Under the pieces are notes generated by a model. That model searched no databases, was not told the DNA's origin, and saw only the letters and a list, made by a program, of their open reading frames with translations. From positions 1,536,001 through 1,600,000 of the forward strand of contig CBDCJO010000002.1 of the NCBI GenBank assembly GCA_965217865.1: a stretch of DNA of 64,000 bases. The letters are read 5' to 3'. This document shows, piece after piece, positions 1,421 through 62,708 of this stretch (position 1 is its first letter; each line of letters opens with the position of its first letter). The translations under genes and the position numbers were made by a program. Source of the DNA: Candidatus Latescibacterota bacterium. GTDB lineage: Bacteria; Latescibacterota; UBA2968; SICM01.

Positions 1421-1484
1421 GGTGGTCTCCCTGGAAATGGAAAATACAAAATGGAAAATGAAAACGTCTCGCCCGAACAATCGA

Positions 1485-3719
1485 TTAGAATCCCGAACCC
1501 GCGCCCGGGGTGAAGACCATGAGCCCCGCCTGAATGACATCCACCTGGTCGGTTTGCGTGCCGGGTGGACGCGTACCTGTGTTTGGAGGCGTTGGCTCAT
1601 CGATGGTAAGCTCACCTTCTTCGGCGATTGGATGATCCCTATCCAGCCCATCCCGATCGAGAGCGGAATCTGGCGCGGTAGCAGGGCCATCCAAACCATC
1701 AAACTGGGCTTTGAGGTCGTCCATTCCCCACCGCGCTCCGTAGAGGATGATCCGGATATTCCCTTTGGATCTCATCTCCTTGTAAAATTCGGGATCCAGT
1801 GTGTCCCAGCCGCCGTGGCTCGGGTCAACGATCACGGCATCGACCAGCCCTTTTTCGACCCATTCGCGCACATCCAGGGCATTTAGAAGGTTCACCTGTT
1901 CATTCGAAAACGTGTAGGGTACCAGCTTGATCGGGCTTCCCTGCTTTTTTGTCTCCTCCTCCAGCATTTCACGAAGATCCTCCATGAGTTTGGTGACGTG
2001 CCGGGCGCGGAACTTCAGCCAGCGGCTGTCCTCATCGGGAAGCTCCAAGGGATCCTCGCCGTATTCCCTTTGGAAGGCATCACACACGTGCGGTTCGTAA
2101 CCGACGAATGGCGGACCCCTGAAAAACCCCGGTGCAATTCCGTCGATCCTTCCGTCTCCGACCTGGCAGTGCCCGATGATTTCCCTGTAGAGCGCCACCA
2201 CGTAGTCGCGGACTTGGGGATACGCGTAGCTCATCTTGACCTTGGCGTGAACGCCGTCCTTGTTGACGATGCAGTACTCCGGATGCTTTTGGAAGAACGG
2301 CCCCGCGGCCCATTCCGAATCAGTGCCCCACGCCCCCATGCGGAGCATCACCCAGAAGTCCATTCCCATCCGGTGCGCCTCATCGGCCCCCACGTTCGGT
2401 AGGTTCACGCCATTTTCGATGAGCGACCTCCGTCCCTGGATGCTCAGCTCATCCCACTGCCTCTTCGTTACGCAGGATTGTGTTCCGGTCTCGCCAATCT
2501 TTGTCGGGTATGTGGTCTTGTCGATTGCGCAGTTCGGGTCCATCAAGAAGATATTGCAGCCCTCAGACCGTCTGACAGCAGTCCGAATGACTTGTCTTAC
2601 GTCGCCTTCGGTGGTCGCGTTGTACTCGGTCAGTGCGTCCCAGGTGTCCAATCCCGCAATCAGAATCGGCTCTTTTGCCTTCACGGGCTCTGAGACCGAT
2701 GGGGGGGCTTCAGCCGGAACAAACCTCAGCCACGCGACGCCACAGCGGACATTGAAATGTATGTAGTCCGGCTTATAGACCCCCGGGCCGCACCAGGTGG
2801 TGAACCGGCTCTTCTGGCGGAGGTGGATGTCCTGGCCGTCCATCTTTACACGCTTCCAGAGTCGCTCCCGGAAAAATCCCCGTTTCACCGAAAAATAGGG
2901 CTCGTTCCATCCTGGCGTCGGATGGAGCGGCAGATGCGTGAAGCCCGATTCCCCGGTTGTCCGGATGTCGATGCCGGCGAAGTTGAACTTCTCATCGTGG
3001 GGAGAGACCGGATCGTAGAGCCCCACGTAAACGTCGTACCAACCTGAAAGGTTTTCCTCACCCAGGTGTAAAACGATCTCCTCTCCGAAGCAATCTTCAT
3101 CGACCTCCAGCCCAACACCTTCCTCAACACCACTCTCTTGAGCCGAGTATTTCGACAGTTTCCACGTGTCGTGGCCCGTGTTGACATGTCTGGGTGTCGG
3201 GATCGGAATCAGCTTCAACCAGGCCAAAGCGCACGGCAAAGTCCGATGTCTCCAGAGCGGGATCTGGGCCAGATGCAGGTCCTGGCCTGACAGGTTCGCG
3301 ATCTTCCAGACACGCTCATTGACTTCGCGGTTCTTGGTTTCGGCGTGCGCCTTCCACAGCGACCAATCCGGATCTTTGCTGAGCCTCGCGTGCATCCCCT
3401 CCCCTGGAGGGCGGTGGTGAGGGGGATTTTGAGCCCACATCCCGTAGCGGACCTCATACCAGCCCCTGAGCTTCAATGCGCTCAGCTTATAGACGACCGG
3501 CTGCGCTCGCGTGGTCTGTGTGCCGATCAGCGAAAAGCCTTCGACATCTCCGGCCTTGTAAGGCTTCAGCTGCCATAGGCCGGGTGTCTCCGGATGCCTG
3601 GATACGAAGGTTTGCGGCTCGCACGCGCTGAAATCGCTGATCAGCAGGGTCTCCCGCGAGTCGCTTTCAGCGTCAATCCCCACGACGGGTTCGAAACGGC
3701 TCAGATCTGTGATGATCAT
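1485..3719 (-). CDS. GHL10-like protein with two tandem N-terminal repeated domains (paralog of 39179..41410)
   Basis: 744 aa; AHRMGMDFWVMLRM, FFQKHPEY, SYAYPQVRDY, DVREWVEKGLVD motifs. Confidence 0.7.
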   Translation of the reverse strand: MIITDLSRFEPVVGIDAESDSRETLLISDFSACEPQTFVSRHPETPGLWQLKPYKAGDVEGFSLIGTQTTRAQPVVYKLSALKLRGWYEVRYGMWAQNPPHHRPPGEGMHARLSKDPDWSLWKAHAETKNREVNERVWKIANLSGQDLHLAQIPLWRHRTLPCALAWLKLIPIPTPRHVNTGHDTWKLSKYSAQESGVEEGVGLEVDEDCFGEEIVLHLGEENLSGWYDVYVGLYDPVSPHDEKFNFAGIDIRTTGESGFTHLPLHPTPGWNEPYFSVKRGFFRERLWKRVKMDGQDIHLRQKSRFTTWCGPGVYKPDYIHFNVRCGVAWLRFVPAEAPPSVSEPVKAKEPILIAGLDTWDALTEYNATTEGDVRQVIRTAVRRSEGCNIFLMDPNCAIDKTTYPTKIGETGTQSCVTKRQWDELSIQGRRSLIENGVNLPNVGADEAHRMGMDFWVMLRMGAWGTDSEWAAGPFFQKHPEYCIVNKDGVHAKVKMSYAYPQVRDYVVALYREIIGHCQVGDGRIDGIAPGFFRGPPFVGYEPHVCDAFQREYGEDPLELPDEDSRWLKFRARHVTKLMEDLREMLEEETKKQGSPIKLVPYTFSNEQVNLLNALDVREWVEKGLVDAVIVDPSHGGWDTLDPEFYKEMRSKGNIRIILYGARWGMDDLKAQFDGLDGPATAPDSALDRDGLDRDHPIAEEGELTIDEPTPPNTGTRPPGTQTDQVDVIQAGLMVFTPGAGSGF

Positions 3720-3907
3720 CTCAATCGGTCCTCATTTTGTGGTCTCGATTCAGCCATCCTTTTCTTCACTGAAACGGTTCCTGACAGGCGTTTTCTCTTT
3801 CGTTGCCTGGAACAGCATAAAGAATTGGTCTGCAATAAGTTAACCAATAAGCGAGAAATAGACTTAAGAGCTGGTAGAACAACCGCGCAATATAGCCCGC
3901 GGGGAGG

Positions 3908-4134
3908 AAATTGCAAAGTGAAAAATGTGAATGGAGACGATGGACCATAGACCATAGACGATGGACGATGGACAAAGGTTGGAGGCCAGAGGCCAGGGGT
4001 CGGGAAGAGCAGTAGCAGTGGCAGGTGGCAGTGGCAGGAAGAGCAGAGGCGGGGCCCAGGGGTCGGAGGTCAGGGGACAGGGAAAAGCTGTAGCAGTAAC
4101 TGTGGCAGGAAAAACCAAGCCCGGTATAGGCAAT
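3908..4134. repeat. Mosaic of short tandem-repeat arrays (AAAATGN, ATRGACS, GGYCRGA, GCAGTG)
   Basis: Directly visible, e.g. atggacc atagacc atagacg atggacg; ggccaga ggccagg ggtcggg; gcagta gcagtg gcaggtg gcagtg. Confidence 0.85.
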
Positions 4135-4151
4135 GGGGTAACCCCTTAGAT

Positions 4152-4262
4152 TTGTGGGACCCGACCCAGTCGGGGAATAAGGGAATTAGCCAAAGGGAAA
4201 CCCCTGTTTAAGGGATCCTGGCCCTCCAGAGCCAGTTCCCGGTCTGGAGACCGGTCCCACAA
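4152..4262. repeat. REP/REPIN-like inverted pair TTGTGGGACC...GGTCCCACAA
   Basis: 10-bp perfect inverted ends with internal hairpins; contains CCCTGTTTAAGGGAT, which recurs at about 16134. Confidence 0.6.
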
Positions 4263-4404
4263 CTTTTGGCCATACAAGGCCAGGGGGGTTGGTTGCGACT
4301 GAGCGAAGCGGAGCCAGTAGGGGCGACCCGATGCGGTCGCCCGTCGATGGGACCGGGCGAGGCTTTGCTTCGCCCAATTGGGAGTCGGGTGGCCGATAAA
4401 ATTG

Positions 4405-4436
4405 TTGTAGGGGCACGATGCATCGTGCCCCTACAA
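4405..4436. repeat. GTAG-type REP palindrome
   Basis: Perfect 32-bp palindrome TTGTAGGGGCACGATGCATCGTGCCCCTACAA; near-identical copy at 27174; related GTAGGGGCGACC..GGTCGCCC at about 4317. Confidence 0.85.
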
Positions 4437-4528
4437 GGGGAATCCGGCGTATAGGTGAGGGAATAAATCCCCGGCGGATTAGTACGTGGATAGCAACACG
4501 ATGGGGTCTTCGATCCCCGAATCACGAA

Positions 4529-5494
4529 TCACGATCCACGGGTTTTGGGGATCTTCACCTGTGTATGTCGGAAGTCGGGTCCTATCGATTGACTTGACCC
4601 CAGGCCCAGTCCCCAGTCATACGGGCCGGGATGGGCTCGTTCCTCAGCCCACGCCTTGAGCGGAACATCATCCCAGTCGTCGGAAAACCAAAATTGCGAT
4701 GACGGATTGCCGATCGGGTCTTTGCCCAGCGGATTTCCGCCCTGGCCCATGGCCCCCAGCAACTGCCGCCGGATTGGGGAGCTACGGGCGATCAGGTCCG
4801 GATCCTGTTCTACGTATCCGCTCGGCCGTACCCACCTTGGCGTGTAGCCGAAATAAATTACCTTGCGGACGCTCTTTGAAAGATTGGGAGTCACACCGTG
4901 CAAAAGCGTGGGCCGCCACAGCATGGCGCTACCGGCCGGAACCCGCAATTCAAAGATGTCCTCAGGTTTCAACCACGAATTCCAGGTGGCTCGTTGCTCT
5001 CGGGTCCACTTGTAGCTCCCGGGCAAAAGAAGGATCGTGCTGTGACCGGTTTCGGTGTGATCCGAAACGTACCAGCCGACCTTGAAGTCCAGCAGCGGCA
5101 ATGGCCCGTCAATAGTGGTTCCTGAAAAGTGGGGTTCATAATCGAAATGCAATCCAAGGGACAATATGTCTGGATCTGTGCCGTCAGGAGCCGGCGGGGC
5201 ATAGCCAAACGTACTATCGCGATTCTGAATGTTCCACCCGATGGCATCCACGACTAACGGAAGAATCCTGGGATGATCGATCAAGTTCAGTATGGCCTCG
5301 TGGTGTGCCAGAGCATTGCGGAGGCCCACCTCGTCTTCGGTACTTAAGCCCTGCGCTCTGCGTATCATGTCTGCCACTTCGTCCATGGCCGTGGATAAGG
5401 AATCCAGCTCTGGCCCGGTCAGCACACGCTCTAATATTGTGAATCCCTTTTCGTTGAGTTCATCTCTCTGCTGGTCGGTAATGGCTATTGGCAT
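4529..5494 (-). CDS. Phytanoyl-CoA dioxygenase (PhyH) family Fe(II)/2OG dioxygenase
   Basis: GFTILERVL start, HxD (LHFD), LLPGS, AGSAMLW..LLHGV. Confidence 0.85.
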   Translation of the reverse strand: MPIAITDQQRDELNEKGFTILERVLTGPELDSLSTAMDEVADMIRRAQGLSTEDEVGLRNALAHHEAILNLIDHPRILPLVVDAIGWNIQNRDSTFGYAPPAPDGTDPDILSLGLHFDYEPHFSGTTIDGPLPLLDFKVGWYVSDHTETGHSTILLLPGSYKWTREQRATWNSWLKPEDIFELRVPAGSAMLWRPTLLHGVTPNLSKSVRKVIYFGYTPRWVRPSGYVEQDPDLIARSSPIRRQLLGAMGQGGNPLGKDPIGNPSSQFWFSDDWDDVPLKAWAEERAHPGPYDWGLGLGSSQSIGPDFRHTQVKIPKTRGS

Positions 5495-5510
5495 CTGGTT
5501 CCTCGGTGAA

Positions 5511-6731: not shown

Positions 6732-6781
6732 CGAGTTGTATCTCTTTGCTATGAGACTATGAACAATACGGGACGGATGTG

Positions 6782-14043: not shown

Positions 14044-14118
14044 GATCAAATCCTCATGGAAGTGAAAAATGCAAAATGAAAAATGGAAAGTGCAAAATGA
14101 GACGGTCACAAGACCCGC

Positions 14119-14886
14119 TTAACCAGCCGTCCTTCGGACTCTTCGCAGCAGGTGCTTCTCCCGCGGTGACAGTGTGCTGTAGAACGACTCTTTCAGCGTT
14201 GGGGTATCTTCGTTGGCCTCAAGGGGTTGCTCGTCACCTTCGGTGAAGTACCAGTGGCGGTTGTGCACGATAACCGCAAAGGGGCGGGGCGCATCCGTAT
14301 GGTTGGGGGTGCCGCGGTGGACAGCACGCGCGTCGGAGATCAAGACGTCTCCGGCCTCGAGCAGCAACGGCTCGAAAGGGAGCCGCCCCGACTCGGCTTT
14401 CTCCAGGGTATCCGCCCGGGGCAAGTGCTGGGAGCGCTCGGCCACCTCGAAGGGGCCGTTCTCCATCGTCATATCGCCAAACGTGAATCGCACAGACAAC
14501 GTTGTCGGTGGGTGATGATGGTCCGGGTCCTCGGGGAATATCAGGGGGATGTCGGCGTGAACCTTCTGATACTGCGAGCCCTTAATCGGTGTGTCCGTGC
14601 CGTAGTAGCAGACGTGCATGTCCTCTCCGAGGATGCGGCCGGTGACCTGTATCACGGTGTCGTCGTTGAAGAAAGCAGAGCGATAGAAAGGGGGTGCGAA
14701 CGGAAGACCGATGGCCCAGCGCTTCGGGCCGCGGTTGCCTTCGGGGATGCGGGCGGAGACCTTCTCCAGCAACGGCAGAAATGCCTTTCGGCATTCCTCA
14801 ATTTCTCGCAGCGGGAAGTGGCCCCGCAGGATGCAGTGTCCGACGTCCAGGATTTCCTCCACGCATTTGTCAACATCGATTTTCAT
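14119..14886 (-). CDS. PhyH-family dioxygenase, tandem copy 1
   Basis: HAD, ENGPFEV, AGDVLI..AVHRG..R. Confidence 0.85.
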   Translation of the reverse strand: MKIDVDKCVEEILDVGHCILRGHFPLREIEECRKAFLPLLEKVSARIPEGNRGPKRWAIGLPFAPPFYRSAFFNDDTVIQVTGRILGEDMHVCYYGTDTPIKGSQYQKVHADIPLIFPEDPDHHHPPTTLSVRFTFGDMTMENGPFEVAERSQHLPRADTLEKAESGRLPFEPLLLEAGDVLISDARAVHRGTPNHTDAPRPFAVIVHNRHWYFTEGDEQPLEANEDTPTLKESFYSTLSPREKHLLRRVRRTAG

Positions 14887-14921
14887 CGTGTTCCTCCGTC
14901 GGAAAGCCAGGGATCGGAAGG

Positions 14922-15032
14922 CCCGGGGATCGTGGTTCGTGACTCGTGGATCGGAAAACCCGGGGATCGTGGTTCGTGACTCGGGGATCGAAAAACCCGT
15001 GGATCGTGATTCGAGACTCGGAGATCGGAAAG
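14922..15032. repeat. 3 x 37-bp tandem repeat built from TCGTGRY heptamers
   Basis: Units start at 14922, 14959 and 14996 (consensus CCCGKGGATCGTGRTTCGWGACTCGKRGATCGRAAAR). Confidence 0.9.
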
Positions 15033-15126
15033 GCTATAGAGGTCGGAGGTCAAGAAAATGCAAGGTGAAAAGTGCAAAATGGAACAAAATGGAAAAGCAA
15101 AATGAACGTCGCTCCACAAGACCCGC

Positions 15127-15894
15127 TTAACCAGCCGTCCTTCGAACTCTTCGCAGCAGGTGCTTCTCCCGCGGGGAGAGTGTCTGGTAAAACGACTCTT
15201 TCAGCGTCGGAGTATCTTCGTTGGCCTCCAGGGGTTGCTCGTCTCCTTCGGTGAAGAACCAGTGGCGATTGTGCACAATAACCGCAAAGGGGCGGGGCGC
15301 ATCCGTGTGGTTTGGGGTCCCGCGGTGGACAGCACGCGCATCGGAGATGATGACGTCTCCGGCCTCGAGCAGCAACGGCGTGAACGGGATCCGCCCTGAT
15401 TCGGCTTTCTCCAGGGTATCCACCCGGGGCAAGTGCTGGGAGCGCTCGGCCACCTCGAAGGGGCCGTTCTCCATCGTCATATCGCCAAACGTGAATCGGA
15501 CGGACAACGTTGTCGGTGGGTGATGGTGGTCCGGGTCCTCGGGGAATAACAAAGGAATGTCTGCGTGAACCTTCTGATACTGCGAGCCCTTAATCGGTGT
15601 GTCCGAGCCGTAGTAGCAGATATGCATGTCCTCTCCCAGGATGCGGCCGGTGATCTGAATCACGGTGTCGTCGTTGAAGAAAGCAGAGCGATAGAAAGGG
15701 GGTGCGAACGGAAGACCGATGGCCCAGCGCTTCGGGCCGCGGTTGCCTTCGGGGATGCGGGCGGAGACCTCCTCCAGCAAGGGCAGAAATGCCTGGCGGC
15801 ATTCATCAATTTCCGCCCGGGGGAAGTGGCCCCGCAGGATGCAGTGTCCGATGTCCAGGATTTCCTCCACGCATTTTTCGATATCGATTTTCAT
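15127..15894 (-). CDS. PhyH-family dioxygenase, tandem copy 2
   Basis: 255 aa, near-identical to 14119..14886. Confidence 0.85.
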   Translation of the reverse strand: MKIDIEKCVEEILDIGHCILRGHFPRAEIDECRQAFLPLLEEVSARIPEGNRGPKRWAIGLPFAPPFYRSAFFNDDTVIQITGRILGEDMHICYYGSDTPIKGSQYQKVHADIPLLFPEDPDHHHPPTTLSVRFTFGDMTMENGPFEVAERSQHLPRVDTLEKAESGRIPFTPLLLEAGDVIISDARAVHRGTPNHTDAPRPFAVIVHNRHWFFTEGDEQPLEANEDTPTLKESFYQTLSPREKHLLRRVRRTAG

Positions 15895-15969
15895 CGCGTT
15901 CCTCCGTCGGAAAAGCCGTCGATCGTGGATCGTGATTCGGGGATCGGAAAGGCCGTGGATCTGAAAGCA

Positions 15970-16056
15970 GAATACAGAAGTCAGGAGTTAGAATTCAGAA
16001 TGAAAGGCAAATGGTTTTGATCTTCTTCTGAATCCTGACTCCTATATTCTGTATTC
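15970..16056. repeat. Inverted heptamer-array element (31-bp arms, 25-bp core)
   Basis: GAATACAGAAGTCAGGAGTTAGAATTCAGAA ... TTCTGAATCCTGACTCCTATATTCTGTATTC, 26/31 match. Confidence 0.8.
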
Positions 16057-16249
16057 CGAGTGAAAGGGCGGATGGGTGGTCTGTCGAATCACGAACAAGG
16101 TACTGGAATATCCCTTAAACCAAAAGAAAAAATCCCTGTTTAAGGGATAATTGGCAGAGGTCAGGGGTCGGGGGAGGAAAATGCAAAGTGAAAATTGCAA
16201 AATGCAAAATGCAAATTGAACGGCAGACGGTGACAATGGACCACAGATG

Positions 16250-20933: not shown

Positions 20934-21119
20934 GCATCCTCCTGTACTAGGAAATTGCAAAGTGAAAAATGCAAAATGGGAAGTGCAAAATTATAGACGA
21001 TGGACCATAGACGATAGACGATAAAAAAAGTCAGACGTGAGATGTGAGACGTGAGACGAAAACCGAGATCGATTTGGAAAAACCAGTGACGGACATTTTA
21101 AATTCACTCAAGTGTCAGA

Positions 21120-21153: not shown

Positions 21154-21424
21154 AATGACGCCTATATTTTAGCAAAATTTCTGAGCGAAGCGAAGGCCGC
21201 GAGAAAAGGGTAGGACAACGGAATTTGTTGATCTTCCTAGTTTTTGGTGGAAAGCGAGTTCTGTGAGACGACGCATCAGCGGGCCATAGGTCCGCGATCC
21301 GGATCCATCCCACACATACCGTAAATGAATCCGGATGCGGGACAGGGATTGGGGGATGGCGAGGTAAAATTATCGCGGCCAGTGCGTGAAGCCGTTAGTT
21401 CACGACTTGAGTATTCGTCCCGGG

Positions 21425-22849: not shown

Positions 22850-23856
22850 TTGGACGGGAGGAGCGGACTGTATCCGTGTCCTTCCACGGTAACCCTTCAC
22901 AAAAAGATTGAGGAGAACGGTGGCGCCCTGTTCATGTGTGGGTACGGACAGTTAACGAGAGGAGGAGGATCGAGAAACTTTCTGATCAAAAGCGATGACT
23001 CCGGAAAGAGCTGGCGGTTTTACGCGGACATCGGCCGGGATTATGAACCTGACTTCTGCCGACTTCCCAACGGGGACATGATCGCGGTTGCCCGCTGCGG
23101 GGGGGATGAGCCCAGGGTGCTGCTCCAGACTCGTTCCACCGACGATGGAATCACGTGGTCCGATCCGACCCCCGCACCGGGGGTGGAGACGGTCAGCCGG
23201 GAAGACCGCACGTGGAAGGATCCGCAGGGGGACTTGTTCAGGGAGGCCAGCGGAGGAAACGTGGACCCCTGTCTTCAGCCTCTTGAGAGCGGTATCATCG
23301 CCCTGTCCTACGGGAGGCCTGCGCTCTGTCTTCGCTTCAGCGAGGACGGCCTGGGAAACTCATGGGACTACAGGACTGAACTGATTCCCAAATACGCGAT
23401 GAAGGACGGGCGGGCATGGGCCTTTCCAGAGCAGTCGGTCATCTCTCACTATTACAGCGGAATGGTTGCCTTGTCGCCCAGAACGGTGCTCGTGGCGTCC
23501 AACATCTATGGGTACAGTCCGAGCGGTGATCCCCGAAAGGGGCGGGATGTGATCTTGTGGTGCCCGTGTCGGTCCGGAGGGATGGAGAGGGGAACAGGCC
23601 CCCTGCTATCAGCGGTCCGGGCGAGGCCGTTTGCGCCCCCGGGCGTGAGGTCGAGGTGCGGTTCACGCTTTCAGACCCGGACGGTGACTGGGTGCGATTG
23701 AAATGCGACGGCCCTCCGGGAACCGAAGTCAGGGGAAACGCCGTCGCGCTTAAAGCACCATGGGAGTTCTCCGGAGAGACGAGCCTGACTGTGAGCGCAG
23801 AGGACGCGTGGGGGGCACGGGCCGAAGAACATGGCCTGATGATAAGAAAAGGTTGA
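22850..23856 (+). pseudogene. BNR/Asp-box sialidase-like protein, probably 5'-truncated, frameshift at about 23555
   Basis: SDDSGKSW and STDDGITW Asp boxes; ATCTTGTG to ATCTTTGTG joins it to the C-terminal NRPP..DPDGD domain. Confidence 0.65.
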
Positions 23857-23958
23857 GGGCCATGGAAATGGAAAATGCAAAATGGAAAATGGAAAAGGCA
23901 AAAGGGAGAAGTCACAGGTCAAATCAAACCGGTATGGGGCCCTGTTCAGATTCCGGAC

Positions 23959-24981: not shown

Positions 24982-25188
24982 ATTGAAGATTGAATATTGA
25001 AAGACCGTCAAACGTGAGACGTGAAACGTGAAACGGGAAAAGCAGTGGCAGGTGGCAGTTGCAGGAAAAGCCAAAGCCGGGACAGGCAATATGACCTTCA
25101 ACCGCACTTCCCCTCTCCCAGATGGACCGCGGACGATAGACCATAGACGATGGACGATGGTCAGAGGTCGGGTGTCGGAGGTCAGGGG
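24982..25188. repeat. Mosaic of GAAGATT, GTGARAC, GCAGTG, ATRGACS and GGTCRGA arrays
   Basis: Five repeat families back to back. Confidence 0.85.
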
Positions 25189-25191
25189 GCA

Positions 25192-25310
25192 AGGGGTTGG
25201 CGGTTTTCAGAGCGAATTGGATGAATTTTAATGATGAACTGATTTGATTAGGGGGAAGCCTTATCGGCATTGATTGACCGATTACGGCCCGCGAGGCCGC
25301 GGGCCCTCCC
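25192..25310. repeat. Left-truncated copy of the MITE-like element at 62441..62636
   Basis: Colinear similarity (GGCGGTTTTCA..GAATTGGATGA..GATTTGAT..ATTGATT..TACGGCCC..CGCGAG..GCCCTCCC). Confidence 0.75.
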
Positions 25311-25329
25311 GGAAACGGCGCGCGGCATC

Positions 25330-29410: not shown

Positions 29411-29553
29411 CGATTGGTCTCCGTGAAAGGCCGTGATTCGGAAAGGCCGTGGATCGTGATTCGTGGTTCGTGATTCGAAAAGGTCCTAACCTTGACCGGA
29501 GTCGGAAAATGAGTTTGGATCCCGGTGTTTTTATTCTTCCTTCAAAGTTCCCT

Positions 29554-30285: not shown

Positions 30286-30682
30286 GAGACCACAGAAAGA
30301 CTGTCAAACGTGAGACGCAAGATCGTGGTCAGAGGCCAGAATAAATCCAGGGCTTAGAGGTCGGAGGTCAGTGGTCAAAGGTTGGGTTCGACGCCCTCAT
30401 CCCCTGTATCCCCTTCTCCCGTCCTTCGACGAGCTCAGGACAGGCGCCGCAGGAGAAGGGGACGATGACAATCATTTCTATATATAAAGGATCCGCCTTT
30501 CCCTTCAAAAATCAATAAGATCATTTTCGAACTTCCCCTCTCCCGGCACCCGGGAGAGGGGTGCCGGGCTTGCGAGGCGGGGTGAGGGAGCACGAAGGTT
30601 TATTAAATATTATAACGCAATTAGAAGATTAAGGCTTGACTTTACAAACCAAACTGAGTAACTTCACACCGCACCTGACGTC

Positions 30683-37308: not shown

Positions 37309-37491
37309 TGAGGAGTCTCCAGGAAAGTGAAAAATGAAAAATGAAAAATCGAAAAAGCAAAGTTGACGGCAGAGCGGAGACCTATCCCCCTGCGCCCCTC
37401 CTTCGACTTCGCTCAGGACGTGGCTTCCCTAAAGGGAAGGGGGATATCGCCTTTATTGTAGACGAACTTTAAACATATGATTTCCCCGAAC

Positions 37492-39181: not shown

Positions 39182-39182
39182 G
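38094..39182 (+). CDS. IS630-family transposase
   Basis: VLCVDEKSQ, YIRHGTTTLFAAL, LDNYGTH, SWLNQVEIWF. Confidence 0.95.
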   Translation: MKMGRPLQPLNLSDEVRSELKAISGSRILPHSLVRRAKIILMSDIGLTNLQIGQKLGLSYAAIGKWRNRYCAQGLMGLYDEMRPGGPRSISDQKIARLIGKTLKTKPRHATHWTCRSIGAETGLSKSTVQRVWKAFGLQPHRQKHFRLSNDPFFVEKVRDVVGLYLNPPDNAMVLCVDEKSQVQALDRTQPILPLGLGYVEGVTHNYIRHGTTTLFAALEIASGKVLTQCKPRHRHQEFLQFLKHIEANVPEDLDIHLVLDNYGTHKHPKTKQWLAARPRYQVHYTPTYASWLNQVEIWFNIITQKAIRRGSFRSVKDLVNNIKKFADHYNSNSKPFVWTATAESILEKIKRLFELIGGTRH

Positions 39183-45837: not shown

Positions 45838-45904
45838 GATGGGTTATGAAGGCCGTATCTCGAAAAAGCTCAGGAAAATTGTTTTAGCTCTTCCGCTTCA
45901 CGCT

Positions 45905-46360
45905 TCACGGTTTATTGGGTTTTCTGGTCAGGACGTAACGATCTTCTGCTTGCCGATAAAAGGCCTTCACGAATCTCCTCTCTTTAAATCCCCACTTTTC
46001 GTAGAGTGAAATCGCGGCTTTGTTATCCGGATCGACCGTAAGAAAGGTCCTCAGGTTTTGTTCGTCGATATCTTTGAGCAGAACCTCAAAAAGTTTGCTT
46101 CCTATCTCTTTTCCTCTGAATTCCTTTTTTACAAAGACTTTGTGTATGCAGTAGTCGCCGTTTACGCACGGGATCGCCAGGATCGCCCCAGCGATTCGAG
46201 AATCTATTTCCGCGCAAAACACGACGGCATGTTCCATCCAGATTCTCCATATATGTTCCCCGTCCGGGATGAATTCGTGGTTTTTGCCTTCGGTCCAGGC
46301 CTCTCGATCTAGAGCGGCGATTTCAAGGAAATCCTGTGGGACTGCCTGTCTTATCTGCAT
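45905..46360 (-). CDS. GNAT acetyltransferase
   Basis: V..EFRGKEIG, N..AISLYEKWGF; lower GC. Confidence 0.88.
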   Translation of the reverse strand: MQIRQAVPQDFLEIAALDREAWTEGKNHEFIPDGEHIWRIWMEHAVVFCAEIDSRIAGAILAIPCVNGDYCIHKVFVKKEFRGKEIGSKLFEVLLKDIDEQNLRTFLTVDPDNKAAISLYEKWGFKERRFVKAFYRQAEDRYVLTRKPNKP

Positions 46361-48634: not shown

Positions 48635-48817
48635 GGGAGGCCCCAGTGGGAAATGAAAAATGAAAAATGAAAAGTGGAAAAGTCAGGGGCCAGAGATCAG
48701 GGGTCAGGGCCTACGAAGCCGGTCATGTGGAGAAAATGATTCTCAGCTGCCACAACTAAACGTCATAAGTATTTGCGCATACATGAAAGCTTTTAGTGAG
48801 TCAAGATTGAACAAAAT

Positions 48818-50949: not shown

Positions 50950-51033
50950 AAGGGAAAGATGAAAAATGATAAAGTCAGAGGTCGGTGGTCGGAGGCCAGA
51001 GGCCAGGGGAATCGAGGGGTCAGAGGCCAGAGG

Positions 51034-51264
51034 TCAGAGGTTGAGTTCGACACCCTCAAGGGATAGTCCCTCGGGTATGTAACTGGGATTGGAGGGGATC
51101 TTGCCGTTCAGGTAATCACAGGTTCGCTGATTGATTTCATCGGGAACGACACCCTGAAGGAGGAGGTAACCGTTTCGACAGTATTCGAGCACCTGGGAGT
51201 CGGTGAGGGTGGGGTCGCACGTGAAGGTACGGGTCGATTGGTTGTAATTCATAAGGGTTGACAC
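51034..51264 (-). pseudogene. N-terminal fragment of a PhyH-like dioxygenase
   Basis: LTDSQVLEYCRNGYLLLQGVVPDEIN, then a stop inside a GGTCAGA repeat array. Confidence 0.7.
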
Positions 51265-51368: not shown

Positions 51369-52352
51369 TCACGCCATCACTCTCAGGGTGGCCAGGAGCA
51401 GGTCGGCCCGTTTGGGGACCCCTCCCGCGTGGTCCTCCCCGCTGTACCAAACCATCAGCGCGCGATTGTCGTCGAGGGTCCAGAAGTGGGGATAGGATTC
51501 ATCTCCGCCACATTCCGTGATCATGTTCATCTTCCAGTGAAACTGTTTCGTCTCCGGATCGAACAGGAACAGTCCGGTGCGCCTAGGGCCCGGCTGATCG
51601 TCGGGAAAGTCCGCGGCGTACACCCGGCCGCTTACGAGGACCGTGTCACCGACGAGCCCGGCGGCGGGACCGCCCAATTTCACGCCGTCATAAGTCGTCC
51701 ATCGGGTGTAAGGCGGGGGTGCAACCGAAACTTTACTCTGCCTCGTGAAGGCCAGCAGGGTGTGGTCCCTGAGGAAGAGAAGGGCCGTCTCCGTGAAGGG
51801 CCCTTCGATGATGGTAGATGCTTTCTCCCAGTTCACCCCGTCCACCGATTTCAGCAGGTCCACCCGTGGATCACCGGTCATGACATCGGCGGCTACGTAG
51901 TGGACGCCTTCGTGGGACGCGGGCTTCCAGAACGAAAAGCCGTCGTCGTAAACCTGTACGGGCTCGCTCCAGGTCCGGGCGTCGTCACTCCATGTCACCA
52001 GGGTCCGCAGCCCTTCGGTTTCCGGTGAGTTCGGGGATGTCAGAACGAGGTAGATCATCATCCGATCGGGGGTCGTCAGAACGTGTCCTTCCTGTCCGTC
52101 GTCGGTTGAGGGACCGAATATATCCCCTACGGTCCAGCCTCCCGGTTCGCCCGGTTGCGAGGCGAGGATCCTGATAGCCCCGTCCGCAAAAGCGTGTCCC
52201 GACCCGGTGCGGAACGGGATGTAATAGCGGTCCTTCCAGAACACGACTGCGGCCCGGCCGTTCCATCTGCCGTCGGAATAGATCTTTTCCACGCGCTCCA
52301 GGAGGACGTCCGGGTTTCGTGATTCGTCGTTCGTGATTCGTGATTCGCACAT
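51369..52352 (-). CDS. BNR-like beta-propeller protein
   Basis: AAAGGCGG SD before ATG 52352; WSDDARTW, SVDGVNW, GGDESYP. Confidence 0.7.
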   Translation of the reverse strand: MCESRITNDESRNPDVLLERVEKIYSDGRWNGRAAVVFWKDRYYIPFRTGSGHAFADGAIRILASQPGEPGGWTVGDIFGPSTDDGQEGHVLTTPDRMMIYLVLTSPNSPETEGLRTLVTWSDDARTWSEPVQVYDDGFSFWKPASHEGVHYVAADVMTGDPRVDLLKSVDGVNWEKASTIIEGPFTETALLFLRDHTLLAFTRQSKVSVAPPPYTRWTTYDGVKLGGPAAGLVGDTVLVSGRVYAADFPDDQPGPRRTGLFLFDPETKQFHWKMNMITECGGDESYPHFWTLDDNRALMVWYSGEDHAGGVPKRADLLLATLRVMA

Positions 52353-52463
52353 ACTCGTTACCGCCTTTCGTTTTCGGTCTACGATTTCAATTTTCCATTC
52401 GTATGAAAAAGGTTGTCCCGACTTTACGAACCCCGAATCACGAACCACAGTTTTCCAGGCAGC

Positions 52464-55624: not shown

Positions 55625-55648
55625 TCTGAGTCGAAGATTTTCGCAGTT

Positions 55649-55682: not shown

Positions 55683-55981
55683 CATGATTTATCCATGCAT
55701 CAGTGTTATGCAAGATGTCGAAGAGCGCCTACCAGGCCGCTGGGAGATATTGATCAAATGGCTTTGTGTCCTTCCGTAATCTGATTGTAAACCAATTTTG
55801 CACGCGCATGCAGAATTGAAAAAAAATAGACGGTTATTGTTTTTAAGTGGTTTAGAAATTTTTTAGTCGTAAAAAAGTTCCGTTAAGGAAATGAAGATGG
55901 GATGTTGCGTTATCTCTTGACAAATTATAATAATAGACTATATTCCTAAATAGTTCGACTATTATGGAGATAAAAGCTTAA

Positions 55982-57145
55982 ATGGATTATATTGAAAGGC
56001 GCCTGAAGATCGATCTTCCGGCAGGCCAATCCGCTTTTCTTTGGGGTCCCAGAGGGGTCGGGAAGTCGACTTTTCTGATGCGAAGGTTTCCGGATAGCCC
56101 GGTCTACGACTTTACCCGGAGGGACCTGATGTTGGACTTCAGCCGGTGCCCTTCGCTCTTGCGGGAGCAGATTCTGGCCCAGGCCCGGAGCCGGTTGAGT
56201 TCCCCAATCATCCTCGACGAAGTTCAGAAATGTCCTCATCTGCTCGATGAGGTCCATTGGCTGATCCAGAATCGGGGCGTACAATTTATTTTGTGCTGTT
56301 CCAGTGCCCGGAAACTGAAGCGGGGGAGGCCGGCCCTGCTGGGTGGTCGGGCGAGGCCTTACGAGATGTTCCCACTTGTCAGCCCGGAAACCGGATACGA
56401 CAACTTGGCGCTTAAGATCCTGAACCGAGGCACGATCCCGACCCACTACGCGGGGGAGCAGTATTTGAAGTCGCTCAAGGACTATGTGAGTGATTACCTG
56501 AAGGAAGAGGTCTTCGATGCAGGCCTCACTCGGAACATCCCCGCATTTTCCCGGTTCTTCGAGGCGATGGCCTATTCACACGGAGAGTTGTGCAACTTTT
56601 CGAACGTCGCCCGGGAATGCGGGATCGACTCCAAGACGGTTAAGGAGTTCTACGGGATCCTGGTCGATACGTTCCTAGGCCGGTTGGTCGAACCGTTCAG
56701 GCGAGGTTCGCGTCAGGTGATTTCCAAGGCGTCGAAGTTTTTCCTGTTCGATGTGGGGGTCGCGGGTGCGGTCACCCGGCGGCGTGTGACGGAGGCGAGA
56801 GGGGACGCGTTCGAGAGGGCGTTCGAGCAGTTTATCCTGATCGAACTGGCCGCGCACGCGGCTTACAGCGAGTTGAACTATCCGATACGGTTCTGGCGTA
56901 CCAAGTCGGGGCTGGAAGTCGAATTTGTGCTGGGGGATGGAGAAGTCGCGGTCGTGGCCAAAGGGAGGAGCCGGGTGGATCGATTGGACCTACGAGCGAT
57001 CCGGGCGTTCGCGAAGGAGTTTGAGCCTCGAAAGGCGCTGGTGGTGTGTCTCGAAGAGGAGGAAAGAAAGGTCGGGGAGATCGGGGTTGTGCCGTGGAGG
57101 AAGTTTTTGGAGGGGTTGTGGGAGGGAGAGGTGGTAGGGAATTGA
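55982..57145 (+). CDS. AAA_14 ATPase with a C-terminal DUF4143 (PD-(D/E)XK-like) domain
   Basis: GPRGVGKST, LDEVQ, LLGGRA, KFFLFDVG, FWRTKSGLEVEFV. Confidence 0.9.
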   Translation: MDYIERRLKIDLPAGQSAFLWGPRGVGKSTFLMRRFPDSPVYDFTRRDLMLDFSRCPSLLREQILAQARSRLSSPIILDEVQKCPHLLDEVHWLIQNRGVQFILCCSSARKLKRGRPALLGGRARPYEMFPLVSPETGYDNLALKILNRGTIPTHYAGEQYLKSLKDYVSDYLKEEVFDAGLTRNIPAFSRFFEAMAYSHGELCNFSNVARECGIDSKTVKEFYGILVDTFLGRLVEPFRRGSRQVISKASKFFLFDVGVAGAVTRRRVTEARGDAFERAFEQFILIELAAHAAYSELNYPIRFWRTKSGLEVEFVLGDGEVAVVAKGRSRVDRLDLRAIRAFAKEFEPRKALVVCLEEEERKVGEIGVVPWRKFLEGLWEGEVVGN

Positions 57146-57332
57146 GAATTGAAGATTGAAGTAAGACCCTTCCGCCCATCCCTACCGGAATACAGAAGTC
57201 AGAAGAAGACCCAAATTCAACTCAGTCGGCAGAAGTGAGAGGCAAGAAGGTAGTAGCGGGTGGCAGTGGCAGAATCCAAGGGGATGGACCTTGAAACCCG
57301 GGGTTCCTATCCACGCTCCCGCGCGCTTACTA

Positions 57333-57671
57333 TTAGTCTTTAAAGATGGCTTCCAGGTCAGCTATCAGCGGCGGAAAGTCGGTCTCGATTGTATCCCACA
57401 GAAGATCGAGATTCAATACATCATAGGCATGAACAAGCCGATTCCGCATGCCCAAGATGTCGGGCCAGGGGATTTCCGGATGTTTTTCCCTGGTCGTTGC
57501 AGATATTCGCGATGCGGACTCGCCAACAATCTCCACCAGGCGTGTGAGGGCCAATTGTAACATCCGGTCGGTCTCCAAGTCGGAACCTTGACGACCGTGC
57601 GTCATTTCCTTCGCCTCCCGGGCGTGATCCAGCATATGACGCAAGCTGACCCGATTGTCATGCCTGCTCAT
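57333..57671 (-). CDS. HEPN (DUF86, HepT-like) RNase toxin
   Basis: EIVGE, IPW..MRNRLVHAY (R-X4-H followed by Y). Confidence 0.92.
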   Translation of the reverse strand: MSRHDNRVSLRHMLDHAREAKEMTHGRQGSDLETDRMLQLALTRLVEIVGESASRISATTREKHPEIPWPDILGMRNRLVHAYDVLNLDLLWDTIETDFPPLIADLEAIFKD

Positions 57672-58236
57672 AAGCCACCTCCGCCTCCTCCAGTACTTCG
57701 TCTCGGAAATAAGGGCTCAAACTTCCGGTCGTGTTCACGTCGACTTTCCTGCCGATCAGTCCACTCAGCTCATTCTCTATTCGAGCCAGGCCGATTAAAC
57801 CGATTCGCACTCCAGGCTCGAATCCCACCAGCACATCTACGTCGCTGTCAGGTGAAAAATCGTCGCGCAGGACCGATCCGAAGAACGAAAGTTTACGGAT
57901 GCGATGCTTCCGGCAAAACTCAGCGATCGTATCCTTGGGTATGTGGATCTTCGTCTTGAGTCGCCGTGTCCCGGGTTTGATTTCTTTCTTGGAAAGGCCC
58001 TTCTCGATCCCGTAATCCGCAATCGCTTCCCTGATCCCTCCGGTGAGGCCGGGGTCCCGCTGTTCCAGGTAAGCTTCCATTTCATCCACGCCGATGAGTC
58101 CCGCCACTGGGATTCCATCCTTTTCCAGGATGAAGAACTCCTTGTTGAGGTGGACGCGGCGGACCACCTGGCCGAGGTTGACGCGGGCTTTGGTGATGGG
58201 GATACGGTGCACTAAAGGTTTGATTTTCTTTGACAA
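57658..58236 (-). CDS. Phd/YefM domain fused to a minimal nucleotidyltransferase (MntA-like) antitoxin
   Basis: N: ITKARVNLGQVVRRV..ILEKDGIPVAGLI; C: FGSVLRDDF..SDVDVLV, GRKVD; GGAGGTG SD with TTG start. Confidence 0.8.
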   Translation of the reverse strand: MSKKIKPLVHRIPITKARVNLGQVVRRVHLNKEFFILEKDGIPVAGLIGVDEMEAYLEQRDPGLTGGIREAIADYGIEKGLSKKEIKPGTRRLKTKIHIPKDTIAEFCRKHRIRKLSFFGSVLRDDFSPDSDVDVLVGFEPGVRIGLIGLARIENELSGLIGRKVDVNTTGSLSPYFRDEVLEEAEVAYEQA

Positions 58237-58266
58237 AGAACACCTCCAGAGAATATATTAATTAAG

Positions 58267-58317
58267 ATTGATCAATATTGATGTCCAATAGATAGGCAAA
58301 TTTTGAGAGGATGTCAA
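58267..58317 (-). promoter_or_regulatory. Putative TA promoter with overlapping palindromic operators
   Basis: TTGACA-17-TATCTA; ATTGATCAAT (58267-76) and ATCAATATTGAT (58271-82). Confidence 0.5.
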
Positions 58318-58529
58318 GGGAAAGGGGGAAGCGTAGGGAAGAAGCAGTGGCAGTGGCAGGAAAAGCAAAGCGAGTAGCAGTGGAAGGGAAAGAAAAGTGG
58401 TTGTCTTTCATCAATTGAATCAGTACCCTGTTGCTCGAGTCTATTAAGGCAAATTATCATAGATTCCGAGTTTGAATTCAAGGCCGAAACTGGTGAGGGG
58501 GGAACCGGATACTCGTATTTGGAGCTGGT

Positions 58530-59364: not shown

Positions 59365-59559
59365 GGAAAGGAAAGTGGCAGTAGCAGTGGCAGTGGCAGG
59401 AAAGGCAGGGGCCAGTGGGAATTGAAGATTGAAGAATGAAGATTGAATATTAACGGTCCAAAAGAAAGTTCTGAGTTTTCAATATTAAATTTTCTGATAT
59501 TCAAAATTCTAATGAATTTGGGGATTGAAAGAGCAAAACGCGATATGGGGGAAATAGAA

Positions 59560-62274
59560 ATGAAAGGCCTGGTTCATCGCGGGTTTGAAGCGTTTTCCGA
59601 GGGTCGGTTCGAGGATGGGGGAAGCAATCTTCACGTCAATGCGCACGGGGTGATCGAGTCCATTCACAGGACGGACCTGAATAACGACGGGTACGTGGAT
59701 ATCGTCCTGGCGAACAGCCACGGGTATATCGAGCGGGGGCCGACGTGGATCTACAAACCGGACCGGAATGACGGGACGAACTGGAAGCGGAGGGAGCTTC
59801 CCAACGACAGCGGATGGATGAGTCGGGTCGAGGATGTGGACGGGGACGGCTATCCCGACCTGGTGGTGGCGAACGGGGAGAACGGGGTCACGTCGGAGCT
59901 TCCCTCATACGTTTACTGGGGCGGCCCCTCAGGGCTGACGGGTGAATGCCAGGAGCTGCCCACGGTTGGGGCATACGATGTGGCCGTGGTGGATGTGAAC
60001 AGGGATGGGTATAAAGATATTGTCTTTCCATCTGCGTGGGTGGACCATCACAACGCGGGACGATCTAGGCTGCTGCACGTGTTTGTCCAAACCGCGCCGC
60101 GGGTGTTCCGAGATGCATCCGAGGACTACGGCCTGAATGGGTTTGCTTCGATGTCGATCGCCTGTTCGGACCTGAACGGTGACGGTCTGCCCGATCTGGT
60201 GGTGGCCAATTATCGCAAGGAATTCGAGTACGACACGGAGTCGTTCGTTTACTGGGGCAAGGAGGACGGTTTCGACGCGGACGCCCCCCTGCGTCTCCCA
60301 ACCCACTATGCCCTTAAGGTGATTTGTGGAGACCTGAATGGGGACGGTCTGGACGAGATCATCTTTTGCGGGGGGGATCAGGTGATGATCTACTGGAACG
60401 ACCGGGGCCGGTTCGATCCCGCGGAACGGACGATCATCGACCCGAAGGGATTCAAAACGATGTTCTGCCAGGGGGCGGTGAACGCCACAGTGAGCGACGT
60501 GGACCTGGATGGACGGAACGAGCTGATCCTTGCAACCGAGGCCGGTGTGGAGATCCGATCTCCGGACGATCTGCACCGGGTCAGCCGGCTTCTCCCGCTT
60601 GAGTTTTCGACGTGGGTCCACGCGGCTGATCTTGACGGCGACGGACGGCCGGAGCTGATCGCGAGCAAGTACGACGACAGGGTGTCCTACGAGACCACGT
60701 CCGCGATCTTCTGGAACGGTCCGGAGGGATTTTCGGAGGACCGTGCCAGCCGGGTGGCCACGGGCGGGGCGATGGGGTGCACGGCGGGAGATCTGGACGG
60801 GGACGGCCGTCCGGAGGTGGTGTTCAACAGCACGATGATGGGTCCGTCCCAGTTCTGGGAGGACTTTCCGATGTATGTCTATTTCGGGGGGAAGGAAGCG
60901 GACTACGGCCCCCACCGCCGTCTGGAGCTGCCGACCGGAGGGGGGAGCAACGCGTACGTGATCGCCGATTTTGATCTGGACGGGCATCCGGACCTGGCCA
61001 TCACGACGCAGGAGGGACTGCGGGTCTTTCCGAGCGGGCCAAAGGGTCCCTGCGCGGACCGATATGTCGATTTGCCCACGACCGGGGGACACGTGATGCA
61101 GGCTCACGTCGCGGATTTCAATCGCGACGGCTATCTCGATCTGCTGGCTTCGGTCCAGACTTACGACGAGAAACCGGAATCGATGGCGAATTCCTCGGTC
61201 ATCTTCTACGGGTCGAAGGAGGGATTTTCGGCGGAGCGGTCGGAGTCCTTGCCCACTTTCACATACGGCCAGGCGCATCTGGCCGACGTGGACCGGGATG
61301 GATACCTCGATGTCATCTTCGGGGATAAACGGGGATATGTCAGAATTTTTCTCGGCGGTCCGGACGGCTACGATCCCGAACGGGTTTTGAAGATCCCACT
61401 GGAGAATCTCCAGACGGGGTCGTTCAACGCGGCTGACCTGAACGGGGACGGCTGGCTGGATTTGATCGTTGGAATTCAAAGCCACTATCACCGGAGAGAT
61501 GAGAGCGTTTATATCCTGTACGGAGGACCGGACGGTTACGATCTGAATAACGCCCAGTGCTATAGGGGCGGATATTCGCCGGGGAAGGTTCACGTTGCGG
61601 ATTACGATCAGGACGGGAATCTGGACCTGCTCGTTCCGGCCTATTCGTCGCAGGTCACCCGGGTCCTGCCTGCTCAGCTGTTCCGGAGTGACGGCAAGCG
61701 GATCGATTTCGAACATCCGTGGGACATTCCGGCCGAGTCGGCCTGCGGGTTTCTTGCTATAGATCTGAACCGGAACGGTTACACGGATCTGTTTATGCTC
61801 TGCCACCGGGACGACCTGGGCCACCAGGTCGATTCGCTGATCTTCTGGAACGGTCCGGAGGGATTCTCCATGGATCAGCCGACACGATTGCCCGGTATGG
61901 GTCCGCACCGGATGACGCGTGACCCGGGCAACGCATATACGAGGGAACCGACGGAAAGCTATGTCTCGCCGGCTATCGATTTAAAGAATTTGCAGCCGAA
62001 GCGGATTCACTGGGAGGCTGAGGTCCCGGACACGACCGCGCTGAAGTTCCAACTCAGGTGGGCAGAGGAGGAAGGCCGGTTGGAAGAGGCGCCGTGGGAG
62101 GGACCGGGGGGGGAGGGGAGCACCTACGAGAAGTCGGGGGAGGAGATCGGAAGAAGGTCCGAGTCGCGGAGATGGTTACAATACCGGGCAGAATTCGAGT
62201 CGCTCTATGGATGCCGATCGGCGAGGTTGTGGGAAGTCCGGATGGAAATGAAAAATGAAAAATGTAAAATGTAA
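59560..62274 (+). CDS. FG-GAP/VCBS repeat beta-propeller protein
   Basis: More than ten DxNxDG..D repeats; start reassigned to MKGLVHRG. Confidence 0.88.
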   Translation: MKGLVHRGFEAFSEGRFEDGGSNLHVNAHGVIESIHRTDLNNDGYVDIVLANSHGYIERGPTWIYKPDRNDGTNWKRRELPNDSGWMSRVEDVDGDGYPDLVVANGENGVTSELPSYVYWGGPSGLTGECQELPTVGAYDVAVVDVNRDGYKDIVFPSAWVDHHNAGRSRLLHVFVQTAPRVFRDASEDYGLNGFASMSIACSDLNGDGLPDLVVANYRKEFEYDTESFVYWGKEDGFDADAPLRLPTHYALKVICGDLNGDGLDEIIFCGGDQVMIYWNDRGRFDPAERTIIDPKGFKTMFCQGAVNATVSDVDLDGRNELILATEAGVEIRSPDDLHRVSRLLPLEFSTWVHAADLDGDGRPELIASKYDDRVSYETTSAIFWNGPEGFSEDRASRVATGGAMGCTAGDLDGDGRPEVVFNSTMMGPSQFWEDFPMYVYFGGKEADYGPHRRLELPTGGGSNAYVIADFDLDGHPDLAITTQEGLRVFPSGPKGPCADRYVDLPTTGGHVMQAHVADFNRDGYLDLLASVQTYDEKPESMANSSVIFYGSKEGFSAERSESLPTFTYGQAHLADVDRDGYLDVIFGDKRGYVRIFLGGPDGYDPERVLKIPLENLQTGSFNAADLNGDGWLDLIVGIQSHYHRRDESVYILYGGPDGYDLNNAQCYRGGYSPGKVHVADYDQDGNLDLLVPAYSSQVTRVLPAQLFRSDGKRIDFEHPWDIPAESACGFLAIDLNRNGYTDLFMLCHRDDLGHQVDSLIFWNGPEGFSMDQPTRLPGMGPHRMTRDPGNAYTREPTESYVSPAIDLKNLQPKRIHWEAEVPDTTALKFQLRWAEEEGRLEEAPWEGPGGEGSTYEKSGEEIGRRSESRRWLQYRAEFESLYGCRSARLWEVRMEMKNEKCKM

Positions 62275-62440
62275 AAATCAGGGGTCGGAGGCCGGAGGTC
62301 GGGGGTCAGGAAAAAGCAGCAGCAGTGGCAGGAAAGGCAAAGGCAGGGGCCAGGGCAGGAAATTGATCGAGGTGGTTGCGGGTGAATAAAGAAATTCACC
62401 GTTTTACCAATCCCCTAATCAAGAACCTTAATGGACGGTC

Positions 62441-62636
62441 TTTTGGGAGGGACGCCGGCCTCGGCGTCCGCAAACATCCCGGTCGTTAAGGCCAGGGTTT
62501 TTCTGATTCCGAGGGGGTATAGGGTTTGGCGGTTTTCATGGGGAATTGGATGATATTTAATGGCGAAGAGATTTGATGAGATGGAAGGCGCTATTTGGAT
62601 TGATTTAACCACTACGGCCCGCGAGCCCTCCCAAAA
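62441..62636. mobile_element. MITE/REPIN-like non-coding element
   Basis: 11-bp TIR TTTTGGGAGGG/CCCTCCCAAAA, subterminal GC-rich hairpin, homolog at 25192. Confidence 0.6.
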
Positions 62637-62708
62637 CCTGGTCGTTCACTTCCCTTTTCGATCCCCGGCCTTTCCGATCCCCGAATCACGAATCACGATC
62701 CCCGGTCT

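Follow-up and report, generated by a model that had tools for sequence, protein, structure and literature searches.

The 64,000-nucleotide stretch analysed here (the window; C2:1536001-1600000) belongs to the Candidatus Latescibacterota genome GCA_965217865.1 (G000; 6.43 Mb in 2 contigs, C1 and C2). Most of its genes lie on the minus strand according to approximate gene calls from a self-trained hexamer model, and its intergenic spacers hold arrays of degenerate six- and seven-nucleotide repeats. In 88% of single-orientation spacers genome-wide (241:32; GATTCGT family excluded), the G/purine-rich strand of these arrays coincides with the inferred leading strand. The arrays are mostly gene-less, single-armed members of families that bracket four-helix-bundle genes as inverted arms. 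What is new is the replication polarity of the lone arms and of the non-palindromic cores and blocks associated with them, so far in one genome.

Heptamer arrays in the window and the genome

A first-pass annotation, made from the letters of the window, had described these spacers as repeat mosaics. Each array that it listed was found at, or within a few bases of, its coordinate; many spacers are indeed occupied, although the proposed count of over 20 comes to about 19-20. The G/purine-rich strand is the plus strand in 39 of 42 family runs of at least two units within the window, and, as had been claimed, this also holds beside plus-strand genes (23865, 57140, 59375, 62245).

Eight array families were defined by regular expression, and with a minimum of three units per array these yielded 419 arrays genome-wide. 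Independently of any motif, an unbiased periodicity scan was run on the whole genome and on three letter shuffles of its intergenic DNA. The scan returned 386 period-7 arrays (348 intergenic) and 78 period-6 arrays (47 intergenic), with only 3-21 arrays for periods 4-5 and 8-13; each shuffle contained 0-1 period-7 arrays. Intergenic DNA therefore carries a period-7 excess of the kind known from heptamer simple sequence repeats (SSRs) of Xanthomonas and Nostoc. Short-read contigs of run X4, obtained from another sample, cross the arrays at 14063, 20951-21058, 24982, 29448 and 30327 with 0-1 differences, so these arrays are not assembly artefacts; the feature is real.

The families had been called unrelated, and at the family level this stands: seven heptamer families are no closer to one another than shuffled units (tree length 15 versus 14.4, P 0.76), which speaks against a single ancestral heptamer. 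Links were seen only among variants, joining AAAATG with GAAGATT and GTGAAAC with GATTCGT.

Orientation relative to replication

The leading strand was inferred from G/C skew at four-fold sites, independently of the arrays. The sign of the skew was anchored at dnaA-dnaN, where it changes from minus to plus with the usual polarity. By this measure the assembly, which is rearranged and 9.3% contaminated, splits into 13-19 skew segments, many with repeated elements at their borders; the genome contains very many repeated elements, often sitting at skew switches. Polarity was scored per spacer, 278 in all, with the 5 that hold both orientations left out of the 273 counted.

The bias was recovered in every gene arrangement, with leading:lagging counts of 134:10 between co-directional leading-strand genes, 50:12 between co-directional lagging-strand genes, 39:6 in convergent and 18:4 in divergent spacers. 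The replichore bias suspected from the window is thus upheld independently of gene direction, and transcription adds a smaller effect. Other treatments of the skew gave 327:90 arrays (coarse model, with agreement in 12 of 12 array-bearing segments), 263 of 327 clusters (local windows excluding 600 nt round each array) and 253:39 (finer model on gene interiors). Base composition alone does not account for the bias, since it predicts strand ratios of 0.6-2.5-fold and the five families tested give 3.5-16-fold. Single units within genes have leading:lagging ratios of 0.79-1.33, within about one standard deviation of composition, which argues against a signal of the KOPS or Chi type.

With the origin placed at 2241 kb and the terminus near 5374 kb, 28% of C2, the window included, is inverted relative to the origin-terminus map. 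Arrays track skew alike in native (141:18) and inverted segments (95:10) and agree poorly with the map alone (see below), so they record a fork direction predating very recent inversions or misjoins. The segment C2:1368000-1797000 and seven others, inverted with respect to the map, retain undiminished GC skew and are themselves very recent inversions or misjoins.

In an unrelated closed genome, G169, the skew was too flat for scoring polarity, and in the relative G002 skew from crude gene calls gave mixed results that were not used. Our literature search found no report of leading-strand polarity of heptamer arrays, and the available text of PMC4060949 holds nothing on strand bias.

Cores, blocks and array geometry

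Perfect GATTCGT runs of 4-38 units occur 21 times, and 20 of these adjoin a single non-palindromic 50-bp core that is followed by a short inverted arm. A profile of this core finds 29 copies (0 in the reversed genome), oriented 27:2 relative to the fork, one of the exceptions lying at a skew switch. Relative to the adjacent gene, 14 copies are sense and 15 antisense. A second core, enclosed by GAAGATT inverted arms, has 32 copies oriented 29:3 (1 match in the reversed genome). As these cores keep both arms and yet are oriented, arm loss alone cannot explain the bias, and strand-specific copying or retention is needed.

Recurrent blocks share this behaviour: the linker between GAAGATT and CAGAATA has 28 copies (24:4 leading), and the GTGAAAC-GCAGTG junction block is in fixed orientation in 25 of 25 cases. 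The varying order of arrays noted in the window is confirmed as variable; it is not random, GTGAAAC preceding GCAGTG 26 times and following it once. With oriented non-repetitive cores and recurrent blocks, the earlier judgement that slippage alone is insufficient holds. Dispersed or REP-like neighbours of the arrays fall into strand-biased (65:24, 40:17, 29:10) and unbiased (16:19, 22:18, 8:16, 9:8) sets.

The 50-bp core with GATTCGT runs is species-specific, its 29 sites being spread over C1 and C2 (e.g. C1:31022-31335, C2:4645368-4645672); it was not found in sampled stretches of the relatives G001 and G002, nor by exact pattern across other genome contigs. Four perfect GATTCGT units occur in 2 of 168 genomes of the phylum. 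A DNA search of G001 and G002 for the second core, using the window sequence, matched GCAGTG runs only. Two ideas about the cores were rejected. Fold-back copying from the local far arm is ruled out, far arms often being GAGTCAC where the long run is GATTCGT and one core bearing a GGTGCGT run; cores as sigma-70 promoters failed by eye, with no scan made, on a TTGAC word lacking a matching -10.

Arrays have a consistent position as well as orientation. In 238 of 273 spacers, the gene closer to an array is the one on the side of the 5' end of its G-rich arm (G-arm), whatever the direction of that gene; the median distance is ~24 nt there and 198 nt on the other side. Xanthomonas (GGGAATC) and Nostoc arrays are likewise intergenic with period 7, those of Xanthomonas lying closer to the 5' neighbour (28 versus 160 nt); the Xanthomonas arrays differ in forming many inverted pairs with no leading/lagging preference reported in the available text, whereas here polarity is 88%, families number about eight and pairs are few (PMC4692102).

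C is depleted at four-fold sites immediately 5' of the G-arm, with a skew of 0.52 within 30 nt, 0.31 at 30-60, 0.24 at 60-90 and 0.09 at 600-1000 nt, as compared with 0.13 and 0.07 on the leading strand at array-free boundaries. This footprint, clearest for genes that end at the array, may reflect target preference or local mutagenesis. In the window, the 51 nt directly 5' of one AAAATG array (23808-23858) carry 12 listed differences from related strains, against ~7% across the aligned piece.

Most arrays are lone arms, despite enrichment for partners: a same-family inverted partner was present in 29 of 377 family-spacer cases (expected 3.4), and spacers with both orientations had them facing inward in 10 of 10 cases and outward in none. 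The CAGAATA inverted pair at 15968-16045 folds as a hairpin (z -3.1). An inward partner lies within 150 nt of 2 of 123 AAAATG arrays in G000, of 20 of 23 in G002 (a sample of ~365 kb, many stretches of which were picked because they bear arrays) and, for GATTCGT, of 5 of 7 arrays at the sampled G001 loci.

Four-helix-bundle genes, relatives and a polymorphic spacer

The first-pass annotation had stated that heptamer arrays often flank four-helix-bundle genes of the 23S rRNA IVS type and saw none in the window. Profile searches (TIGR02436, PF05635) place four such loci in the genome, none of them in the window. At each of the four, a G-rich arm lies upstream and an inverted arm downstream, and the four loci use four different families of the window's set (GTGAAAC, ATGGACG, AAAATGN, GCAGTG); one downstream arm is displaced beyond an inserted insertion sequence. 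The remaining four array families have no four-helix-bundle gene of theirs in this genome. Three of the four genes look damaged, by an in-frame TAG, a frameshift and the lack of a standard start, respectively. The window arrays thus resemble this heptamer-armed cassette in their repeat families, in the layout of a G-rich arm 5' and a C-rich arm 3' and in abutting neighbouring genes; they differ in having no gene, in being mostly single arms stacked as mosaics and in being oriented by replication.

For the intact gene (C2, about 3991550-3991910), close homologues from other phyla were examined at 80 loci, 2 of which were dropped for short flanks. GTGAAAC arms on both sides were present in 6 of the 78 usable loci; 16 of the 78 had an inverted pair, whatever its unit, when tested strictly. 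A GxxExxY-type cargo, sought with the PF13366 profile, had no match in the genome itself, and no description of heptamer arrays linked to four-helix-bundle genes was found in the literature search. Short AAAATG hairpin pairs number in the hundreds in G002 (e.g. L012:12051-12150); no four-helix-bundle gene was found in that genome, which is 91% complete.

Filled and empty alleles, which had been suggested as a check, exist at one window spacer (25002-25328). In runs X8, X11, X13 and X14, from four studies, position 25001 is joined to 25329 in 4 of 4 cases (sides of 255, 21, 83 and 24 letters). The relatives keep the GAAGATT arm, and ~33 letters replace the 327-bp mosaic; the gene-proximal arm is thus kept and everything distal to it replaced. 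The closest counterpart that the mosaic has elsewhere in this genome matches it at 89% over 137 nt, so it is a composite of dispersed modules. Relatives in the Genome Taxonomy Database (GTDB) are too distant for orthologous spacers (~70% identity in genes), and a metagenome scan added 2 distant loci.

Table 1. Arrays and associated repeat elements of the window (positions in the window; strand of the G/purine-rich arm)
Feature	Position	Strand	Remark
AAAATGN array, lone arm	1435..1464	+	directly beyond stop of minus-strand gene 1485-3719
Mosaic of AAAATGN, ATGGACG, GGTCAGA, GCAGTG, GGTCAGA runs	3908..4074	+	
REP/REPIN-like palindromic dispersed repeats	4125..4470	.	spacer shared with 3908 mosaic; 35 and 40 genome copies by profile hidden Markov model, no strand bias there
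GATTCGT-family arm, inverted (C-arm on +)	4518..4540	-	far spacer edge
AAAATGN array, 6 units	14059..14100	+	homologous to 15055-15104 via tandem gene duplication
Mosaic of GATTCGT-family runs, GGTCAGA, AAAATGN	14910..15104	+	
Mosaic of GATTCGT family, CAGAATA inverted pair, GGTCAGA, AAAATGN	15917..16220	+	
Mosaic of AAAATGN, ATGGACG, GTGAAAC	20952..21058	+	crossed by X4 contig, 1 difference
Dispersed element 3' of 20952 mosaic	21225..21380	+	89 copies, 65:24 leading
AAAATGN array	23862..23907	+	common to related strains
GAAGATT arm	24982..25001	+	present in filled and empty alleles alike
Polymorphic 327-bp mosaic: GTGAAAC, GCAGTG with tail, ATGGACG, GGTCAGA, dispersed tail	25002..25328	+	
GATTCGT-family short arm	29448..29477	+	
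Mosaic of GTGAAAC, GGTCAGA, then REP-like element	30303..30375	+	
AAAATGN array, then REP-like element	37324..37356	+	
GTGAAGC-type run	45890..45909	-	minority orientation
Mosaic of AAAATGN, GGTCAGA	48650..48709	+	
GGTCAGA array, ~9 units	50974..51041	+	
GATTCGT-family inverted pair	52314..52448	+	arms 52316-52347 and 52426-52448
Block of GAAGATT, linker, CAGAATA, linker, GCAGTG	57140..57275	+	first linker 28 copies, 24:4 leading
GCAGTG array	58342..58397	+	
GCAGTG array, then degenerate GAAGATT arm-core-inverted arm element	59374..59520	+	core family n=32, 29:3 leading
Mosaic of AAAATGN, GGTCAGA, GCAGTG	62245..62330	+	
GATTCGT-family C-arm	62682..62701	-	far spacer edge

Several further observations concern the window's genes. 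The PhyH-family tandem duplicates (14119-15894) are ~90% alike, and the arrays beside them have come to differ in family and in number of units. On its reverse strand, the GATTCGT array at 52314-52352 encodes the predicted N-terminus of the gene at 51369-52352, whose start codon is likewise a prediction. A HEPN gene and a nucleotidyltransferase fused to a Phd/YefM domain (57333-58212) are likely a toxin-antitoxin pair and adjoin an AAA_14-DUF4143 ATPase (55982-57145). Transposase genes are present at 31438-32082 (IS1595 family) and 38193-39182 (DDE_3). All four runs compared have one extra base at 17580, and the split of the DUF6785 gene region there is probably an assembly error; three related runs have one extra base at 23554, where the BNR-repeat frame 22850-23840 is frameshifted in the window.

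Origin of the arrays

The account that we favour, at somewhat less than an even chance, is that repair at the fork rebuilds the arrays and copies them from spacer to spacer. While the lagging-strand template is single-stranded, an inverted pair on it would form a hairpin; a stall or cut at the hairpin would then be mended by a template switch or by ectopic conversion, with priming from whichever arm the fork meets first; this repair would drop or re-synthesise the second arm and append blocks of the same polarity from other spacers; and slippage would later lengthen or shorten the perfect runs, which span 1-38 units in the GATTCGT family. In Escherichia coli, repeat instability is orientation-dependent and hairpins on the lagging template are prone to breakage, at least in the available texts of PMC2175318 and PMC4245961. 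In both settings the outcome differs according to the strand that serves as lagging template; the E. coli cases are engineered inserts, whereas the record in G000 is natural, extends over the whole genome and includes shuffled blocks. The first-pass annotation had raised an active deposition mechanism; copying by host repair fits the data at least as well as a dedicated deposition enzyme, none of which was identified in our analysis of the genome.

Several results weigh against repair-copying. The model is silent on how a first arm arrives at a naive site and on the takeover by one core orientation. The window's lone-arm mosaics show weak folding (z -0.9 to -2.0), so the hairpin trigger must lie in the past. 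The leading strand was assigned by GC skew, in an assembly that is rearranged, and the origin-terminus map alone agrees with the arrays in only 151 of 264 cases. A second unrelated closed genome, G170, gave at most a weak bias, about 20:12 lone arrays by hand count with one ambiguous locus omitted (P about 0.2), and Xanthomonas arrays are reported, in the available text, without leading/lagging preference (PMC4692102). The filled/empty difference is one locus, unpolarised by an outgroup, and its insert has no exact donor in this genome. Finally, mutS, mutL and sbcD are intact in G000 and in both paired-arm relatives, which excludes a repair defect of these genes as the cause and leaves nothing that explains why the G000 lineage differs.

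A related and rather unlikely proposal is that a dedicated, fork-coupled and strand-specific copying system writes hairpin mini-elements, whose heptamer arms were once four-helix-bundle cassette ends, on one replicating strand and stacks them at gene boundaries. It is equally doubtful that the two oriented arm-core-arm families, the perfect runs of up to 38 units and the purine-rich footprint in adjacent coding DNA are preserved products of such a system. One specific version, in which fork-targeted single-strand transposition (HUH/Y1, or linked to four-helix-bundle genes) inserts hairpin mini-elements into the lagging-strand template, also appears unlikely. IS200/IS605 elements are oriented by the lagging-strand template, and REP, BIME and REPIN systems with their Y1 (HUH) transposases likewise form intergenic mosaics of small repeats (PMC5027513, PMC3333891, PMC6006769, in their available texts). 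In G000, REP-like elements share the array spacers, whole arm-core-arm elements are oriented, and 19 Y1 transposase matches were found, 14 of them near full length and 10 of these 14 on the inferred leading strand. The units here differ from those systems in being tandem heptamers, not short palindromes, and defined ends, a target word and a cognate enzyme were not found. The DNA 5' of arrays contains partial repeat units and a purine-rich run in place of a fixed target word, copies have ragged ends and are ~70-90% alike, strand bias is absent from several REP-like neighbours, and four-helix-bundle genes are mostly damaged in G000 and, as noted, were not found in G002 with its paired arrays.

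Less likely still is polar decay, by which cassettes were symmetric at first and randomly oriented, slippage favoured the arm with its purine-rich strand leading, and the other arm decayed. Perfect tandem runs are in fact purine-rich on the leading strand (AATCACG 20:2, AAAATGG 7:0), and in GATTCGT pairs the ACGAATC-leading arm is the longer in 21 of 28 pairings and the shorter in 3, with some loci counted twice. None of the 15 perfect runs of at least 9 units on C2 lies in a map-inverted segment (28% of its length, holding only 2 cores), a hint that long runs depend on the direction in which the fork now moves. Decay predicts cores in both orientations and is contradicted as sole cause by the orientation of both core families; nor would it yield mosaics, recurrent junction blocks or the 327-bp replacement. 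Polar slippage probably operates as a second step after the repair-copying that we favour.

That the arrays are RNA elements, such as terminators or processing stems, whose orientation follows transcription is improbable. Arrays do lie close to stops and starts, the mRNA strand more often carries the G-arm (198:91), and the bias peaks where transcription runs with replication; against this, it follows replication between lagging-strand genes as well as in convergent or divergent spacers, cores are oriented without regard to gene direction, and most arms are partnerless. We consider it slightly less probable again that they are polar binding sites for chromosome-handling proteins kept by selection, the protein-binding architecture envisaged by the first-pass annotation. 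KOPS, Chi and architecture-imparting sequences (AIMS) are single short words skewed within genes too. The arrays share with them a strong polarity that flips with GC skew; they differ in that heptamer units within genes show no skew beyond composition, and eight unrelated words, patchy among relatives and polymorphic between strains, fit such a role poorly.

There is very little probability that a telomerase-like reverse transcriptase writes the repeats on nascent 3' ends from an RNA template. DRT10, according to the available text of PMC12632851, synthesises tandem-repeat DNA on an RNA template, and perfect runs of up to 38 units do stand beside a conserved core. Three reverse transcriptases were found among insertion-sequence fragments (C2:451080-452231, 814301-815350 and 487638-488081), two best matching DRT4 and one no class, all below the cut-off in hit tables that contain no DRT10 model. 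The nearest arrays are more than 5 kb away from them, a GATTCGT-family template is lacking within 3 kb, and the GGTGCGT run that replaces GATTCGT at one core copy (C2:4522756) is complementary neither to its core nor to its far arm and fits local slippage. Chance, base composition or assembly artefact is scarcely credible and is refuted for the window arrays by the shuffles, the composition estimates and independent contigs, even though the assembly is rearranged and contaminated and the long perfect runs are known from it alone.

Heptameric repeats have no detailed literature, and their role is still to be elucidated, according to the available text of PMC4692102. In G000 they record fork direction about nine times in ten, non-palindromic elements do so too, and relatives keep the symmetric state, which ties the spread and decay of these repeats to replication. 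The question of where bacterial seven-base repeats come from thereby becomes a two-orientation experiment, and in a rearranged chromosome the arrays can mark, locally, the ancestral direction of the replichore. If repair-copying is true, they would not be a signal; they would be DNA that is either selfish or neutral.

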